Virus record (IMG/VR): IMGVR_UViG_3300016667_000529
Location: 1-36,014 of that record
Reading direction: 5' to 3' (one strand)
DNA length: 36,014 nt
Source of the DNA: a virus
Lineage: Duplodnaviria > Caudoviricetes
This document shows, piece after piece, positions 3,966 through 30,963 of the stretch. The translations under genes and the position numbers were made by a program. Numbering within the stretch: position 1 is the stretch's first letter; each line of letters opens with the position of its first letter. The notes under the pieces were generated by a model. That model had not been told where the DNA came from and made no database searches. It saw nothing but the letters and a program-made list of their open reading frames with translations.

Positions 3966-6900
3966 ATGCCCAGACTTGTTATTCTTCCCGATGGTCGTGC
4001 GGTTTATGCGCCGGACGAGATGACGCGCGATCAGGTTCTGGCTGCGAGTGGCTTCGCTGCGCCGGCCGCGCCTGAGCCTGACGTCCGGGATGACGAGCAG
4101 AAGTCTGACATCATCGATGACATCCAGCGCGGGCTCGGCGGTCTATTGGCTGGCACCGGCTCCGCCATCCGCGACATCAACGAAGGTGCTGGCCGATGGC
4201 TGCAGGAGCGCGGCAACGAGATCGTCGCGGCCAACCCTGCCGACTACGGGTCACTCAGTGACATCAGTGGCATTGGAGACCTTGTTGGTTTCGGGATTGA
4301 GCGCCTCGCTGAGACTGCGCCCCAGCTCGTTGGCGCAGGTATCGCGTCCGCAGTGGGCTCGCCTCTGGCTGGCGCAGCCATTCTCGCCGCGCCGACTGGT
4401 GTGTCGACCTACGGTTGGGCGCGCCAAGCTCAGCGCGACACTGGCCAAGAAAGCTATCTGCGCGCAGCGGCGGCTGGCGTCGGAGCGGGCGCTCTGGATC
4501 TCCTCGGTGTTGCTCGCGTACTTCCGGGTAACGTCGCGAGCAGGCTGCTGGGCGATGTCGTGAAAGGTGGTATCCGCGGCACCGTCAAGAGCGGCCTGAA
4601 GGTTGGCGGTGAAGAAGCGCTGACGGAAACAGGGCAGCAGGTTCTGCAGCGCTTTGGTGGCATGCAGGAACTCACGTCACCTGAGGCTATGGAGGAGTAC
4701 GCCTTCTCCGCTCTGGCTGGCGGCTTGGTCGGCGGTGGACTCGGTGCGGGTGCTGGCGCGGTGCGCAGCTTCACATCGCCGACCGAAGCGCCCCCCATTG
4801 AGGATGTGGGGACGCAGGGCTTCAGGGCAACGGCTGCCCCGCAGATCGAGGTTCCGCCCGAGATTGCGTCCGCAGCGCCACTGGCAACCATCGATATCCC
4901 AGACATCGAGGCCCCAGAGCCGGGCGCCGTCAGGACGATGGCGGTTCTCTCGCAGCCGGACGAAGGCGGCAGGGTGTGGGTCCGCACCCCAGAAGGCGTC
5001 ACCACGCAGATGCCTGAGTTTCTGCTCAGCCAGATCGGCGGAACATACACGCCGTTCACTGAGCCCACTTCCGGCGTGGTTCCGGGCGAGACTATCGGGA
5101 CTGGCACCACGACGATTACCGTGAACGATGTGCCGGTCACCACGTCCGGGTCTCTACAGCCCACCATGCCTGTGGCGCTTCCGATTGGTGAGCCCGTAGA
5201 CGTTACTGCTCCCGTCGATGTCACGGCTCCAATTGAGGTGGCCGCCCCTATCGAATCGCCGGCTCCTATTGAGGCGCCAGCTCCACCCGAGTCCGTTCCC
5301 CCGGTCGAGGCTCCCGCCCCTGCCGAAGCACCCGCCCCGATTGAGTCTCCGGCTCCGGTCCCGGCCCCCGCTCCGGCTCCGATTGAGTCTCCGGCTCCGG
5401 TCCCAGCCCCAGCTCCGGCTACGGCTGAGGTGCCCGCCATCCCAGCCCCCGCTCCAGCGCCGGCAGCCATTGAGCCGCCGGCCATCGCGACGCCTGCGCC
5501 CGCGCCTGCACCCGAGGAATACGTCTTCACGGCTGAGAGGGCAGCGAAGGCTGGTAGCCATGACCCCAAGCTGGCGAAGGCTCTGATCGGCAAGACTGTC
5601 AGCGGAGCAGCAGAAGCGCTGGCCCAGCGGACGCCGGTAGAGCCCTATAAGATTCTCGCGAACCGTGTCGCTGGTGTTGCCCGTGCGATTGAGGGTGCGG
5701 GCGTACGTATGCCAGTTGGGGTCACAGCTATTCCGGGCGGGCAAGGTGCCGTCAGTGATAGTACTATGGCCGCAGCCAGAGAGCCGGGGACCGCCGGGGT
5801 GACGCAGTCATTCCCGCGCGCTGACGGAATTGGTTATTCCGCGGTAGAGGTTGCCATGCGGGGCAAGCGCTCCAAGAATGCGCCGCGCGGCGCAAATGAG
5901 CGCACCCTTCTGCACGAGCTTCTCCATTCAGTGACGACTGGCGCACAGCGTATGTCGGAGGCGGGGCAGCTTCCCTCCGGTAGCCGCGTTAGCGAAGCCC
6001 TCAAGCAGATCAAGGAGCTGCATGGTAAGGTCAAGCAGGGCGCTGCTGATATTGAATCCGGCAAGCTAAAGGTCGACCCTGAAGTTCGTGCGGCCCTCGC
6101 TCGGCTGCGGGGATCGAACGCATTCCTGAACGAGCGCGAGCTGCTCGCGTGGGGCATGACGGACTACGACATGCAGCTCGTCCTTAAGGCCATCCCGGTC
6201 AAGGGCGGGAACGCATTCACCGAGTTCGTCCGCCTGATCGGCCGGATGCTTGGCGTCGGACCGAAGGACATGAGTGCACTGCGTGAGCTGATCGAGCTCA
6301 CTGAGGTTGTGATCCCGACCGAACCTGCGGCGCAGCAGGAGATTGCGGACATCGTCTCCGGGAAGGCTGTAGAGCCAGTCACTGAGCCTGAGGCTGGGGT
6401 GGTGGCCGATGTTGATGCTGAGGCTAAAACTCGCTCGCAGGTCACATCAGAAACCCCTGTGTTCCATGGCACTAATGTCGATTTTGACGATCTGAATTTC
6501 AACCAACATCGCGGCGGTATTACATTCACAACTGACCCAGACCTTGCTGATTATTACGCTAAGGACCGCGCCAAGAAACTTGGTGGAACTGGTCGAGTCG
6601 TAGAGTCACGTCTTAATATCACTAACCCCCTCTACACTAATGAGACGAATGATTACGTAGAGGATGTGCGGTATGCGAAAGAAAATGGCTATGACGCAGT
6701 CATTGGTCCTGCGCATGAGGGCCCAAATCCGCCACTAAATATTACTGTTTGGGATGAGAAGGCTATTGCAAAACCTGGGTCTACTCAGACCGAGTCCTCA
6801 GCATTCAAGGCATGGTTCGGTGGCAGCAAGGTGGTGGATGCCGATGGCAAACCGCTGGTGGTTTATCATGGGACGCAGGGCGAGGCGTTCGACATCTTCA

Positions 6901-9900
6901 AGCCCGGAGCGTGGTTCTCGGAGAACCCTAGCGAGAGCAGTGCGTACACCTTTGCGAGCGACATTCCCAAGCGTGACAGGGCGACTGGGAAATACCGAAT
7001 TGCGAGTGGCGCAGAGCTCGCCGGTCAGAGGGTACCGTACGCTGGCATACTTGCGGATATTGAGAACAAGGAGGTTGGTGGCGTATATGCCACTGATAAC
7101 GGGGTATACCGCTCTCTCGGTAACGGGAAGTGGGAGGTTTTCTCCGATCTTGATAGCGATTACGACGACTTCGACTATGACAGCATGACTGTCGTTCTCC
7201 GCCGAGGTGATTTCCAGCGGCAGGCGGAGGATCTAATCAGGGACTACGAGGGCGCCGTCGAGCGTGCCTACCCCGGTGGCGTCGGCGGTCGCGTGTATCC
7301 GGTGTACCTCTCGATCAAGAATCCAATTAAGCTTCCACCCCTCGAGGCAAATCGGATTGCCCGGCGCCTAGGAATGGGTGACGCAGATATTGATGCGAAG
7401 ATCCGTGAATACGAGGCGGCTGGGTACGACGGTATCGAGACCACCAGTGATGAGGCCACGCTGTTCCCGGAGGTATTCGAGGATCTCGGCGGCATCCCCC
7501 GGCAGTGGGTCGCGTTCCGGCCGGAGCAGATCAAGTCAGCCACCGGAAACCGCGGCACCTTCGACCCAAATCGTCCTGAGATCGACCGCCAGCAGCAGGC
7601 ACCCACCCCACGCCCGATTGTCCAGTACTCTCTGGGTGATGAGACGAAGCTCGATGCGTTCAAGCGCCGCTGGGTAGACAAAAACCGGCGCCTATATTTT
7701 GTCGAGGAGATGATCGCTCAGCAGCAGGGCGCTCCGATCCCTCGCACTCAGCGCCCAACCGAGAAGGCCGCTCTGTTTGAGGGGCGCGCTGACACCCGCA
7801 TTCAGGAGCTGCAGCGCGATCACTTCGACAAGATCGTCAACGCGATCAAGGATGAAGGTCTACAGCCGCACGAAGTCGACACGTACCTGATCTCTCGGGC
7901 AGCATTCGACCGAAACGCGAAGGTCGCGCGCCGGAACCCGGAGATGCCGGACGGTGGTATCGGCATCACCAACGCTATCGCTCAGCAGAACCTGCTCGAC
8001 GCCGCGAATAGTGGCCGGCTGCCAGCCCTTCAGCGCATTGCTGAACTGTATGATGCGATGACCAAGCAGACCCGCGACACGATGGTCGAGTACGGTTTGC
8101 TGAGCAAGAAGCAGGCTGACGCATTGGTTCGGGAAGAGCCCTTCTACGTACCAGCCAAGGGCACGTCACTCGAGGGCGACTTCACGGAAGCGGCGGCAGA
8201 CGTTTTCTCCGCGCCGGGCTCAGGTCGCGGCTTCTCGGTTCCGCGCAAGGAGTACCTCGCGGCGAAGGGCCGTCGTTCTCTGCCATTCAGTCCGCTTGCG
8301 ACGGCGATGAATGACGCGGCCGAGACCATTGTCCGTGGGGAACGCAATCGCGTTGGCCAGTCCTTCCTCGACGATATCGCTCGCAAGTATGACTCGAATG
8401 CGTGGGAGGTTTTCACGGACGAAAACCCAGACACCACCCTCCAGTATGTCCAGAAGTCGAATACGGTTCGCCGCGTTCCCGTCGACATGGCGGCAAACTC
8501 GAAGAACTACTTCGTCGTCAAGAAGCAGGGTAAGCCCTACTACATCAAGATCGAAGACCCCCTCCTACTGCGCGTCCTCACCAACGGTAGCACGCAAGAC
8601 TTCTCGGCCGTGAACCGCTTCCTCGGCAATACGATTGGCCGAGTGACCCGAATGATCTCGCAGCTGCACACCACGCTGAACCCCGAGTTCGTCATTCCCA
8701 ACATCATCCGTGACGTCGAGGCCGCAGCCTTCAACATCGCGGCCGAGCAGGACATGGTCGACGGCCGTCTCGCTGGAAAGAAGATCGTCGCTGGCGTGAT
8801 GAAGGACATCAAGTCCTTCGATAACTTCAAGCGCCTTGCCAAGGCGACGTTCAATCACGAGGCCACGACGGCAGAGCAGCGCCAGACCAACGCCCTGTTC
8901 CAGCAGGCCAAGGAGGACGGCGCCTTCACCGGATGGATCCTGTATTCTACGCCGGAAGAGCACATGGCGAAGATCAAGGGGGAGCTCGAGAGCGCCACTG
9001 CTACAGGTAAGAAGAAGGCTTGGTACTCCACCAAGGCTGGCGCGAAGAAGGTCATCGACTGGGTTCAGGATCTGAACTCCGTGTTTGAAAACACCACGCG
9101 CTTCGCTGTCTACAAGAACGCCCTCGATGCCGGACTGACCCGTGATGAAGCGGCGAATATGGCGCGCAACGTGACGGTCGACTTCAACCGAAAGGGTGAG
9201 GCCGGCCCCACGGTCAACGCACTCTATGCGTTCTTCAATGCGTCCATTCAGGGTAACGTGCAGTTGCTGCGTACGCTCACCCGGAAGAAGGTCGACGGTA
9301 CATATACGATGGCGCAGAAGGCGGCGTTCGGTCTTGTCGGCTTCGGGATCCTGCAGACGATGATCGCTCGCGCGCTGTCTGACGAGGACGACGACGGGTC
9401 GCTATTCTACGACAAGATCCCTGACTGGGAGAAGGAGCGGAACATGATCTTCATGCTCCCGAATGGTCAGGACTACATCAAGATCCCGCTGCCGTATGGG
9501 TACTCGTTCTTCCACACGCTGGGTCGTACGGGAGCAGAGCTGTCGGCCGGCGTGAAGAGCGTCGGTGACTTCGTGATGGGGGTGCTGAGCGGCCTGATCA
9601 ACAATTTCTCACCGCTTCCGATTTCGGGGAGCTCGATCTCGGGCGTTGCGGCCAGCACCGTACCGACAGCATTGCGTCCCTTCGCAGACCTGATGATCAA
9701 CGAGAACTTCTTCGGCAGCCCGATCTATAACGAGCCGTTCGACGAGAATCAGGCTAAGTCCAGCGTCTCTCGGTATTCGACGCCGGAGGGGTACAAGGCT
9801 GTGGTTGAGTTCCTCAATGAGGTGACCGGAGGAAAGGGTAAGATTGCCGGCGCCGTAGATATCCCTGCGGAGTCAATCCAGTACCTGATCAACTACTACA

Positions 9901-10343
9901 TCGGTGGGATGGGCAAGTTCGCCGGCGACGCTCTTGGGTTCGCGAAGGGTGCCGCGACCGGTGAAGGGGTGGAGAACATCAAAGACGTCCCCCTGATGCG
10001 CAAGCTGCTTGGGACGCCCAATGAGCAGAACGATCTCGGGTTGTACTACGACCGCCTCAATGCAATCGAACCGGCCGCTCGTCAGCTCAAGGACAGTGAT
10101 GCCTCGGAGCGCGCCCTCCTCCGTGAGAAGTTCCCGGTCGAAACCAACCCGCGCATCATCAGCGCCCTGAAGCAGGCTAAACAGCAGCTCAAGGATGCCA
10201 ACAAGATCAAGCGCAACCTGCTTGATCGCGACATGGATGACGTTGAGCGGCAGCGCCGGCTGGACGCGCTCGATGAGCGGATCCACAATACGTACCTGAG
10301 GTTCAACCGCACATACAATCAGGTGGAAGAGCGGGAGGGATGA
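3966..10343 (+). CDS. Large polyvalent (injected) protein: Pro/Ala linker, zincin-like HExxH, two ART-like domains, LPD38-like C-terminus
   Basis: RBS GGAG. LLHELLH (HELLH at 5913-5927). VFHGT..GITFTTDPDLADYYA..NITNPL..GYDAVI at ~6455-6760. FKAWFGGSKVVDADGKPLVVYHGT..VYPVYLSIKNP..GYDGI..AFRPEQIKSATGNRGTFD at ~6800-7570. IPDWEKERNMIF..YIKIPLPYG near 9420-9500. Confidence 0.8.
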   Translation: MPRLVILPDGRAVYAPDEMTRDQVLAASGFAAPAAPEPDVRDDEQKSDIIDDIQRGLGGLLAGTGSAIRDINEGAGRWLQERGNEIVAANPADYGSLSDISGIGDLVGFGIERLAETAPQLVGAGIASAVGSPLAGAAILAAPTGVSTYGWARQAQRDTGQESYLRAAAAGVGAGALDLLGVARVLPGNVASRLLGDVVKGGIRGTVKSGLKVGGEEALTETGQQVLQRFGGMQELTSPEAMEEYAFSALAGGLVGGGLGAGAGAVRSFTSPTEAPPIEDVGTQGFRATAAPQIEVPPEIASAAPLATIDIPDIEAPEPGAVRTMAVLSQPDEGGRVWVRTPEGVTTQMPEFLLSQIGGTYTPFTEPTSGVVPGETIGTGTTTITVNDVPVTTSGSLQPTMPVALPIGEPVDVTAPVDVTAPIEVAAPIESPAPIEAPAPPESVPPVEAPAPAEAPAPIESPAPVPAPAPAPIESPAPVPAPAPATAEVPAIPAPAPAPAAIEPPAIATPAPAPAPEEYVFTAERAAKAGSHDPKLAKALIGKTVSGAAEALAQRTPVEPYKILANRVAGVARAIEGAGVRMPVGVTAIPGGQGAVSDSTMAAAREPGTAGVTQSFPRADGIGYSAVEVAMRGKRSKNAPRGANERTLLHELLHSVTTGAQRMSEAGQLPSGSRVSEALKQIKELHGKVKQGAADIESGKLKVDPEVRAALARLRGSNAFLNERELLAWGMTDYDMQLVLKAIPVKGGNAFTEFVRLIGRMLGVGPKDMSALRELIELTEVVIPTEPAAQQEIADIVSGKAVEPVTEPEAGVVADVDAEAKTRSQVTSETPVFHGTNVDFDDLNFNQHRGGITFTTDPDLADYYAKDRAKKLGGTGRVVESRLNITNPLYTNETNDYVEDVRYAKENGYDAVIGPAHEGPNPPLNITVWDEKAIAKPGSTQTESSAFKAWFGGSKVVDADGKPLVVYHGTQGEAFDIFKPGAWFSENPSESSAYTFASDIPKRDRATGKYRIASGAELAGQRVPYAGILADIENKEVGGVYATDNGVYRSLGNGKWEVFSDLDSDYDDFDYDSMTVVLRRGDFQRQAEDLIRDYEGAVERAYPGGVGGRVYPVYLSIKNPIKLPPLEANRIARRLGMGDADIDAKIREYEAAGYDGIETTSDEATLFPEVFEDLGGIPRQWVAFRPEQIKSATGNRGTFDPNRPEIDRQQQAPTPRPIVQYSLGDETKLDAFKRRWVDKNRRLYFVEEMIAQQQGAPIPRTQRPTEKAALFEGRADTRIQELQRDHFDKIVNAIKDEGLQPHEVDTYLISRAAFDRNAKVARRNPEMPDGGIGITNAIAQQNLLDAANSGRLPALQRIAELYDAMTKQTRDTMVEYGLLSKKQADALVREEPFYVPAKGTSLEGDFTEAAADVFSAPGSGRGFSVPRKEYLAAKGRRSLPFSPLATAMNDAAETIVRGERNRVGQSFLDDIARKYDSNAWEVFTDENPDTTLQYVQKSNTVRRVPVDMAANSKNYFVVKKQGKPYYIKIEDPLLLRVLTNGSTQDFSAVNRFLGNTIGRVTRMISQLHTTLNPEFVIPNIIRDVEAAAFNIAAEQDMVDGRLAGKKIVAGVMKDIKSFDNFKRLAKATFNHEATTAEQRQTNALFQQAKEDGAFTGWILYSTPEEHMAKIKGELESATATGKKKAWYSTKAGAKKVIDWVQDLNSVFENTTRFAVYKNALDAGLTRDEAANMARNVTVDFNRKGEAGPTVNALYAFFNASIQGNVQLLRTLTRKKVDGTYTMAQKAAFGLVGFGILQTMIARALSDEDDDGSLFYDKIPDWEKERNMIFMLPNGQDYIKIPLPYGYSFFHTLGRTGAELSAGVKSVGDFVMGVLSGLINNFSPLPISGSSISGVAASTVPTALRPFADLMINENFFGSPIYNEPFDENQAKSSVSRYSTPEGYKAVVEFLNEVTGGKGKIAGAVDIPAESIQYLINYYIGGMGKFAGDALGFAKGAATGEGVENIKDVPLMRKLLGTPNEQNDLGLYYDRLNAIEPAARQLKDSDASERALLREKFPVETNPRIISALKQAKQQLKDANKIKRNLLDRDMDDVERQRRLDALDERIHNTYLRFNRTYNQVEEREG
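5200..5515 (+). repeat. Pro/Ala-rich coding repeat (PIESPAPVPAPAP-type units)
   Basis: 26-bp exact repeat CCGATTGAGTCTCCGGCTCCGGTCCC at 5337-5362 and 5379-5404 (42-bp period) inside degenerate PAP repeats. Confidence 0.8.
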
Positions 10344-28369: not shown

Positions 28370-28405
28370 ATTTTCCTCCAATCCGCAGCTACAACTTTCG
28401 AAAAA

Positions 28406-28434
28406 ACGGTAACCTGACGGGAACCGTTCGTCAA
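28406..28434 (-). promoter_or_regulatory. Putative sigma70 promoter
   Basis: TTGACG-17 bp-TACCGT upstream of the Cro-like gene. Confidence 0.55.
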
Positions 28435-28736
28435 TGGGTACGTAATTTTATTTCCGCATGCATAAAATAGCATGTCACCGATTGGTTACGTGTTCCGTTT
28501 AGGTTACGGAGTCTGTTCCTCTAATTTTAATCCGTCACTTAAAAGGAACGGTGATAAGTGCCCACAAACGCTGGATAATTTCCAAAAACGGGGCAACCGT
28601 AACCCAGAGTGCACAGGAACAGCTACAGGAAAATATAGCTATATAGAGAGAAAAATACCCCGTAACCAAAAGGTTACCATTTTTCCAATTATAAATATAT
28701 ATTTATTGGAGCAGATATATATATATATATGGGGAT

Positions 28737-28760
28737 CTGCCGCGTTTCGGCGGTTTTTTT
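28737..28760 (+). terminator. Intrinsic-terminator-like hairpin on the non-coding strand
   Basis: CTGCCG-CGTTT-CGGCGG hairpin (one G-U pair) followed by a T-run. Confidence 0.4.
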
Positions 28761-28857
28761 AACAGATCCGCCGATTTCTGCGTAGCGGATTTTCCAAAAA
28801 ACGGGAGAAACGCCACGGGACGGCGCTGTTCCCGATATTTCAGTAAACCGCCTGGGT

Positions 28858-29064
28858 TTATTTTACGGCCGCGATTTTGCCGCCCTCCATCACGACGTTG
28901 GCGAAGAATTCCCGCTTGTGCCCGGTCATGTGTGGCCGGTTGCATCCGGTCAGCGTGCCGTCGGCGCGGTATTCCGGGCCGAACATGGATGTTTCGCGGT
29001 AACGCAGGGGCTGGCCGATGCACTCACGCAGGGCTTTCTTGGTCGGATAGTCGAAGATCAACAT
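28858..29064 (-). CDS. Conserved phage hypothetical protein
   Basis: YPTKKALRECIGQPLRYRETSMFGPEY..FFANVVMEGGKIAAVK; GAAAGG RBS. Confidence 0.75.
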   Translation of the reverse strand: MLIFDYPTKKALRECIGQPLRYRETSMFGPEYRADGTLTGCNRPHMTGHKREFFANVVMEGGKIAAVK

Positions 29065-29372: not shown

Positions 29373-29383
29373 ATCGGTTCCCC

Positions 29384-29560
29384 TCAGCTGTGCGTGTATC
29401 CATCGCGTTCAATCCCGAGCCACATCCCGGCCCACTGCAGCATGATGCAGTCATGCCCGGGCAGAACGGCGCGGCGGATCTCGCGATAGGTGCGGCCATC
29501 AGCGCCGCGCCGGTGAATCCGAAGAAGCGCTTCGCGTTGCTTACGTGTAATCGGAAACAT
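29384..29560 (-). CDS. Small early protein (58 aa, not in ORF track)
   Basis: MFPITRKQREALLRIHRRGADGRTYREIRRAVLPGHDCIMLQWAGMWLGIERDGYTHS; GMWLGIE.DGYTHS C-terminus; AAGGA RBS. Confidence 0.75.
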   Translation of the reverse strand: MFPITRKQREALLRIHRRGADGRTYREIRRAVLPGHDCIMLQWAGMWLGIERDGYTHS

Positions 29561-29651
29561 ATCGGTTCCTTTCCCCTATAGTTAACCAGTGCAGCGCCAC
29601 AGCGCCGGACAGATTAACCATATAGGTCAATCCCCTCGCCTCCACACGTTC

Positions 29652-29770
29652 GGGGATGGAACGCATCCCCTAGGGAAACAGTGGCCTTGCAATCGGCCCA
29701 CGTGGCAATGACGCCACCAGAAATCCCGTTGTCAGCGGGCGGGCGGTTAAGCCCTTGCTGGAAAACCAGC
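29652..29770 (-). other. Array of six consecutive short hairpins
   Basis: Stems at 29652-70, 29683-98, 29702-17, 29725-39, 29741-54 and 29757-70. Confidence 0.6.
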
Positions 29771-29788
29771 CAATTACACTAGAACGGA

Positions 29789-30007
29789 TTAACGCGAGAC
29801 GCCCTTGCCGACAGCTCGTGCAGCATACTCGCCGCGATAGACGGATGAAATCATCCCTTCCGTGCGCTCACGCCGGTTGACGCGAGTCAGATTCTCATCG
29901 CGGATTGCCCGTTGCTTCAAGACCAGCGCAGTATTGTGCGCATCACAGGCCTTGAGTGCATCGCGCCGGGCCTTCGCCTTCCGGCGTTGGTTGCGAGTAA
30001 GTGCCAT
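29789..30007 (-). CDS. Arg-rich basic protein (72 aa), first gene of the early arm; possible N-like RNA-binding protein
   Basis: MALTRNQRRKAKARRDALK..; RBS GAAAGGGA before the ATG at 30007. Confidence 0.7.
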   Translation of the reverse strand: MALTRNQRRKAKARRDALKACDAHNTALVLKQRAIRDENLTRVNRRERTEGMISSVYRGEYAARAVGKGVSR

Positions 30008-30103
30008 GTTAACCGTCCCTTTCGGTGGGCCTTGCGGCCCTAGGTTTATGTAAGCTTTCCGGGGAAAGCCTCTCTTGCTAGTCGTCAAACCAGCGATGCA
30101 TTA

Positions 30104-30131
30104 ACAGTAATTCAATCAACTCACTTGTCAA
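30104..30131 (-). promoter_or_regulatory. Early promoter P2
   Basis: TTGACA-16 bp-TACTGT. Confidence 0.65.
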
Positions 30132-30134
30132 GCG

Positions 30135-30475
30135 TTTTGTTTGACGCTGGTTTGCTGCAATGGCGCGGCGTACACTCGGACCGCCACCCGCAAACCTAGT
30201 CGAAACATAGTGGCGACTGCGCCACCCGCTTAGTTGATCAGGACCGCAACCGCTGGCCCGCTTGGTAGGGGACTAAATCCCCGTTTCGCCTTACCGCCCC
30301 TTGGGGTCGTTGGAGCGTATTCCCGCTGCCTTTAGCCCTGCGGTCCTGATCTATCTCGGCAGCGGCTAGGGGAAGCATTCACTCCCATCCGGTAACGGCG
30401 CAACCCGCTATCCCTAGCCTTCTGCCTTCTCAGCGAAACCAGCTGATCACTGCCGTGGGGTTTCGCTTTCGATGT
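30135..30475 (-). ncRNA. Putative ~330-nt highly structured RNA (ncRNA or leader) between P1 and P2
   Basis: Five non-overlapping helices, including a perfect 13-bp stem (30236-48/30339-51); no credible ORF. Confidence 0.65.
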
Positions 30476-30479
30476 CCCT

Positions 30480-30540
30480 ACAATACCGATTTGATTGATT
30501 AGGTCAATACAGTATTTTCGATTAAAAATAAAAAAATAAT
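30480..30540 (-). promoter_or_regulatory. Early promoter P1 with UP-like element
   Basis: TTGACC-16 bp-TATTGT (30507-30480) preceded by an A/T tract at 30513-30540. Confidence 0.7.
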
Positions 30541-30730: not shown

Positions 30731-30898
30731 GAATCTCAGGAAGGCCGGGGGTAAATATAGATATATACCCAACCACACCCGCATTCTGGGAATTTTCCGC
30801 CCGCCCCCAGCGAAACCATTCTGGTTACCCCACCCCTGAGATCACCCCCGGTAGGGGCACCCTGTTTGGTTCCATACCCAGCGCGCCGGGATTTCGCG

Positions 30899-30963
30899 GC
30901 CGAGATTGACACAGTTCGAGATTCCCCGCCGAGATTGACACAGTTCGTAGACAGGATTATCTA
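30899..30963 (+). promoter_or_regulatory. Putative late promoter with duplicated -35 module
   Basis: 20-bp direct repeat GCCGAGATTGACACAGTTCG at 30899 and 30928; the second copy gives TTGACA-17 bp-TATCTA. Confidence 0.6.

Follow-up and report, generated by a model that had tools for sequence, protein, structure and literature searches.

The described systems closest to the locus reported here are the phage proteins N and Nun, in both of which, as far as the accessible parts of the sources go, the N-terminal arginine motif contacts a boxB hairpin and the extended C-terminal region reaches into RNA polymerase (PMC8632103, PMC5386594). HK022 itself antiterminates through the protein-free put RNA, according to the same parts of these papers (PMC8632103, PMC5386594). 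A non-lambdoid N-like system is represented by Gp17 of mEp021; in the accessible part of its description, gp17 and conserved nut sites are found in all 48 mEp-type genomes (PMC11893012).

The locus lies in a virus record, 66% complete, that makes up the whole 36,014-nt stretch of DNA analysed (the window). Terminase and portal are encoded on the plus strand, whereas primase, helicase, RecE/RecT and SSB lie in a minus-strand arm.

The first early gene and its surroundings

The early region was annotated as follows, in the order of transcription and with the exchanged segment last. L002 is a related locus with a terminase 100% identical, and flanks about 90% identical, to those of the window.

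30480 to 30507, minus strand: promoter-like sequence P1, TTGACC-16-TATTGT (consensus match only)
30140 to 30475, minus strand: folded non-coding block between P1 and P2 (folding score, domain folds, strain deletions); by domain folds it consists of D1 (30467-30432), D2 (30426-30358), D3 (30351-30236) and then two hairpins (about 30228-30157)
30104 to 30131, minus strand: promoter-like sequence P2, TTGACA-16-TACTGT (consensus match), kept in L002 as TTGACA-16-TATCGT
30077 to 30094, minus strand: leader hairpin 1 (fold), common to L002 and absent from the first-pass annotation
30052 to 30071, minus strand: leader hairpin 2, GCUUUC/GAAAGC core at 30054-30069, spanning the left cassette junction (fold, L002 alignment)
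30027 to 30040, minus strand: leader hairpin 3, GGGCC-GCAA-GGCCC with a GNRA tetraloop (sequence, fold)
30016 to 30022, minus strand: ribosome-binding-site-like AAAGGGA, 8 nt upstream of the ORF (sequence)
29789 to 30007, minus strand: arginine-rich protein of 72 aa from an unnamed family (family profile, strain variants, predicted helix)
29561 to 29788, minus strand: non-coding hairpin array, the tail (folding score; variants at 29762 and 29765)
29384 to 29560, minus strand: second ORF of 58 aa, within the swapped segment, also present in L009 and L210, both without the arginine-rich gene
29382 to 30061, minus strand: swappable 680-nt segment (the L002 alignment stops at 30062 and restarts at 29381; same joint in run X2)

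The ORF at 30007-29789 encodes a protein of 72 aa with the N-terminus MALTRNQRRKAKARR and with 19 K/R against 7 D/E residues. The ORF is a real gene under purifying selection, and each of the five strain variants listed within it is synonymous. A first full profile scan returned 10 matches, seven of them small basic homologues, and the iterated search expanded the family to 33 and then 113 clusters. R5, R8 and R9 are invariant in 116 aligned sequences, R15, N39, L40, G51, Y57 and G69 are conserved in at least 90% of them, the C-terminal part carries the conserved motifs NLS-P, GxVSSxY and G[YF]TRP, and the net charge is basic in all 32 members counted. Structure prediction gives a single confident helix over residues 5-41, with the arginine motif at its start, followed by a tail of low confidence. 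Homologues of 145-156 aa, considered as tandem copies, were rejected as such; they are upstream-extended gene calls. The first-pass annotation had described a basic, arginine-rich protein encoded by the first ORF after the early promoters, and both statements hold: the small basic protein is conserved, an arginine-rich helix is predicted at its N-terminus, and the gene stands directly behind a non-coding leader in all five loci with context.

No credible match to the protein was obtained in Pfam and none among PDB sequences, and PHROGs gave no credible match (single weak matches for 2 of 116 family members). A viral-model fold search gave no match, a single helix being uninformative as a query, and the best score in a protein atlas, 0.76, fell under the lead threshold. 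Cultured phages yielded no credible match for four family members and no DNA match for the window, L155 and L230 regions. A search of the literature open without subscription, supplements aside, returned nothing on the protein family or on the large RNA described below. Contigs from RNA libraries cover 30279-30457 (two runs of one study), 29853-29994 and 29480-29686 at a depth of 3-4.5; as there is no silent control, this coverage is not evidence of transcription.

Against dinucleotide shuffles, the block (30475-30140) folds with a z of -3.9 (0/100 shuffles as good), the leader (30105-30008) with -2.4 (5/200) and the tail (29790-29561) with -2.7 (2/200), compared with -1.0 to +2.5 for ten coding stretches of 330 nt taken from the early arm as controls; Rfam gave no match in the early region of the window at E up to 1. 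The folded flanks proposed for the gene are real, with the caveat that P2 separates the 330-nt block from the leader. Deletions of strains in public DNA runs, from 30228 to 30468 (239 nt) and from 30357 to 30461 (103 nt), end near domain ends of the block, and since strains delete domains, the block is modular. In L002 its last two hairpins alone are kept, with compensatory changes. The block had been put forward as a partner of the protein, which is not borne out, as the element is modular and other strains lack parts of it. Both leader hairpins of the first-pass annotation were recovered, at 30040-30027 and 30069-30054; shuffling the 98-nt leader produces a GNRA hairpin of at least 5 bp in 2% of cases, and the window holds 19 such hairpins (7 on the plus and 12 on the minus strand). 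In the tail, the first loop reads UUUU in the window and CUUG in 4/4 DNA runs compared, with variants at 29762 and 29765. CUUG loops closed by a G-C pair have special stability.

No RNA polymerase family was matched among 54 proteins scanned from the window (a record 66% complete) or among 17 from the L230 phage, so the host polymerase likely transcribes the early arm. The minus strand of the arm has few terminator-like sites, and the total over both strands (17, compared with 12.0 +/- 3.2) is near chance. The boxA-like sequence GCTCTT, the enterobacterial-type core and the sole one searched, does not occur on either strand between 23.1 and 36 kb of the window. An alphaproteobacterial host had been assumed earlier; the best cultured terminase matches reach only 31-35% identity and come from mixed hosts, so this host is unconfirmed for the window. 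The box GAAC-N7-GAAC, the alphaproteobacterial LexA site, is present in L155, L160 and L230 and absent from the window.

Several further features of the window were recorded. A gene-free stretch at 28391-28860 is AT-richer (58% vs 39%), contains six GTAAC/GTTAC repeats, and may be a replication origin; GTAACA-rich repeats occur at a similar place in relatives, and a plus-strand terminator-like hairpin lies within the stretch at 28737-28753. Two 26-nt direct repeats at 30893-30947, each with a TTGACA, lie just upstream of the small terminase gene and are kept in L002. The tetranucleotide CTAG occurs 7 times in 29561-30520 (960 nt) and 10 times in 34,014 nt of the remaining window. The plus-strand gene at 3966-10343, close to a DNA-ejection gene, encodes a polyvalent protein of 2125 aa that carries ART-PolyVal and LPD38 domains.

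The gene is exchangeable with a protein-free structured RNA

L002 replaces 30061-29382 of the window by about 380-400 nt of unrelated non-coding structured sequence and keeps P2 and hairpin 1; as this locus shares hairpin 1 without having the gene, the hairpin lies outside the cassette. The segment is swapped in L002 and in public DNA runs alike; the gene thus belongs to a cassette that can be exchanged, and at this site a structured RNA without protein can take its place. Loose ends at 30075 and 30053 (runs X10 and X11) show at least two further alleles starting at the cassette junction, one L002-like and one unlike either.

The extent of the exchange was followed among uncultured relatives with terminases 72-100% identical to that of the window (80 loci kept of 115), 40 of which have records reaching the early region. 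The family profile, which found the window as positive control, detected the gene in 0/40 of these records and in 0/5 of the near-complete ones. The gene is not needed by sister phages, and the proposal that its product drives the early arm of about 20 kb is not supported by this distribution, which includes a strain with flanks about 90% identical.

Non-coding leaders of 400-500 nt without the gene, located between the early promoter and the first ORF, were found in L074/L208, L075, L079/L209, L080/L206, L212, L002/L213 and L210; in L210 the two genes downstream are those of the window, with the arginine-rich gene absent. These protein-free RNAs share the motif GC(G/T)GA(T/A)C-GTGT-G(A/T)TC-GAAAT with one compensatory pair (8 hits), and fold with z values of -1.6 to -4.6 over six of them. 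One consensus fold from four sequences, distinct but close copies, serves as their structure, and 32 of its 124 predicted pairs show a compensatory change. Rfam returned no match at E up to 1 in the early regions of L002, L074, L079, L080, L155, L160 and L177. Profiles of the protein-free RNA gave no match in the early region of the window or at the four homologue loci; it is therefore distinct from the 330-nt block. This undescribed RNA of about 500 nt is possibly more interesting than the arginine-rich gene.

Short leaders prevail among the relatives: 23 of 28 distinct leaders are at most 66 nt long, a count with misplaced automatic calls in the case of L002, L074 and probably L053. Eight loci (L005, L009, L012, L018, L033, L058, L070 and L071) have two hairpins in the first 50-66 nt after the early promoter, with stems that vary while pairing. 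These twin hairpins were considered as put-like, being of put-like size, and rejected, as most fold no better than shuffles.

RNA elements at the homologue loci

DNA context is available for five loci, namely the window, L155, L160, L177 and L230, out of a family of 113 clusters. L155, L160 and L177 are the three homologues among 120 metagenome pattern hits (57 of 64 parts scanned, CGN arginine codons only); they sit on contigs of 1.0-1.6 kb from a single assembly project and cannot count as independent samples. L230, the one homologue among 16 genome hits, lies on a 50.8-kb Zobellviridae-like contig with a portal matching those of ICBM2, ICP2 and O4 at 47-50%, in a group unrelated to that of the window. 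A deeper family profile found no further homologue locus over 236 loci; searches of viral contigs for the protein gave 46 and 34 candidate stretches with no relative confirmed, and a pattern search gave four hits, all false. DNA patterns for the leader and tail motifs of the homologues hit 0 viral contigs.

In all five loci, across two unrelated podophage groups, the gene lies between a non-coding leader and a non-coding tail; in the three short contigs its first position is deduced from at least 300 nt of gene-free upstream sequence. The GNRA hairpin within 120 nt upstream of the gene is less constant, being found in three of the five (window, L155, L160). L177 has UUCG at the hairpin where L160 has GCAA, with proteins identical in 66 of 67 residues, and L230 has a leader without a GNRA hairpin and a GCAA hairpin in the tail. 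GCAA hairpins also occur in two of six protein-free RNAs. The reading of the GNRA hairpin as a boxB that co-occurs with the protein is not supported by these findings.

These observations bear directly on a true N/nut system, in which the protein would bind the GCAA hairpin as boxB and be required for expression of the early arm. The position as first gene, the arginine motif and the GCAA hairpin a short way upstream of the gene (window, L155, L160) all agree with it, and mEp021 Gp17 offers a non-lambdoid precedent in the accessible part of its description (PMC11893012). The exchange of the loop beside a nearly identical protein, the L230 leader and the missing boxA nevertheless make this reading very improbable, as does the absence of the gene from all 40 relatives, set against the presence of gp17, in the same part of that report, in 48/48 mEp-type genomes (PMC11893012). 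The Pfam models N36 and N_peptide likewise gave no family match: N_peptide weakly detects lambda N and Gp17 and finds 0/3 of the family members tested with it. As N_peptide also misses Nun, this result excludes kinship with N, not a similar way of working. Homology, a boxA of the core searched, a conserved boxB and group-wide presence were all looked for and not found, which places the protein outside the N family.

A different element is common to the tails of all four non-window loci: hairpin-AA(U/G)AGUUAGCG-stem-UUAGCGGACAC, 44-92 nt after the stop codon (806-848 in L155). Both stems change on both sides among the four, and three copies have a U-GNRA-U loop. The motif is a candidate internal-loop site for a protein. 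It was not found in the window, and hence the five loci have no RNA element in common.

One alternative is an RNA chaperone or protector, which would coat and stabilise its own folded transcript or regulate its own translation and leave RNA polymerase untouched, protein and RNA together being a possible decoy. We regard this as possible though doubtful. Long folded flanks in five of five loci, with a covarying tail motif in four, fit it, as do selection at the RNA level in the tail of the window, from UUUU to CUUG in a G-C-closed loop, and the lack of boxA and the scarcity of terminators to read through. It does not account for the large structured RNAs that occupy the same site without the protein (L002, L210, L206, L208, L209, L212), and it leaves the conserved C-terminal motif unexplained.

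The lack of a common RNA element would also be expected of a host-takeover peptide directed not at phage RNA but at the ribosome, at host RNA or DNA or at RNA polymerase directly, with the hairpins as ordinary stability or processing elements. The first early genes of the group to which the window belongs are highly variable accessory genes, most of the short leaders of its relatives also form one or two hairpins, and GNRA hairpins exist without the protein. We consider this explanation somewhat unlikely: the long non-coding flanks in all five loci, in two phage groups, are unlike those of the other first genes of the group.

Dispensability, the first-gene position and the want of a conserved cognate hairpin in cis agree with Nun-like exclusion, whereby the protein would bind the RNA element of a competing phage and arrest its transcription, the early arm of the carrier being independent. 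Nun follows the same logic, and HK022 itself relies on the protein-free put RNA, in what the cited sources make accessible (PMC8632103, PMC5386594). Nun works from a prophage, however, and the 66%-complete window showed neither an integrase nor a lysogeny gene; nor is there homology to Nun or a known target phage, and we rate exclusion as improbable.

Proposed mechanism and comparison with known systems

Our tentative choice, made on the N/Nun-like layout and held at less than even confidence, is that of an optional, swappable first-early cassette with a product that would act as an RNA-tethered modifier of the host RNA polymerase, N/Nun-like by analogy only. The protein is a likely RNA binder that may adjust early transcription. 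Its arginine motif would bind folded RNA of its own early transcript, with recognition depending on shape and not on a fixed GNRA loop; the C-terminal part, conserved but unfolded (NLS-P, GxVSSxY, G[YF]TRP), would fold against a host partner, of which the elongating polymerase is the likeliest; and the protein on the polymerase would increase read-through of the earliest transcript or make this transcript more stable. Its role would thus be that of a booster, not that of the switch of the early arm.

If such an RNA-tethered polymerase modifier is real, it would represent a second, unrelated origin of N/Nun-type control, outside the enteric phages, and RNA tethering would provide a new peptide-RNA pair of a kind widely used as a tethering tool. 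Natural controls exist in L160 and L177 (proteins identical at 66/67 residues, GCAA vs UUCG) and in the window and L002 (the same phage with the cassette swapped). Even otherwise, the analysis has defined a protein family of 113 clusters, as yet unnamed, and at the same site a structured RNA of about 500 nt that had not been described.

The protein-free RNAs belong to the same size class as the large ornate RNAs GOLLD, ROOL and OLE (PMC12286853), from which they differ in being far more variable in sequence and without an Rfam match in the regions scanned.

With lambda N/nut and P22 N, as described in the accessible parts of the sources, the arginine-rich protein shares small size, basic character, an N-terminal arginine-rich helix, the place of first early gene, an extended C-terminus and leader hairpins (PMC8632103, PMC11480772). 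It departs from lambda N in profile probability (0.1%) and length (72 aa vs about 110), and from both in having no boxA, a loop that is not conserved and a gene dispensable in sister phages; by analogy, it may still work like N. With mEp021 Gp17 it has in common a non-lambdoid phage and a short arginine-rich first early gene, whereas the profile probability is about 0.1% and the gene occurs in 0/40 relatives, compared with 48/48 genomes for Gp17 with nutL, nutR1 and nutR2 in what is accessible of that report (PMC11893012).

The arrangement parallels that of HK022, where, within the accessible parts of the sources, Nun is an accessory arginine-motif protein beside the protein-free structured early RNA put (PMC8632103, PMC5386594); here protein-plus-hairpin cassettes stand against RNA-only ones. 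Nun itself shows no homology (profile probability 0.4%), and put, at about 65 nt in those parts, is small beside the RNA-only alleles of 400-500 nt. A broader generalisation, which we think unlikely, is that podophages without an RNA polymerase of their own keep a hot-swappable slot at the head of the early transcript, filled either by an arginine-motif protein of independent evolutionary origin with hairpins or by a 400-500-nt protein-free structured RNA, both of which would let the host polymerase resist termination, as a convergent counterpart, on a much larger scale, of N/nut vs put.
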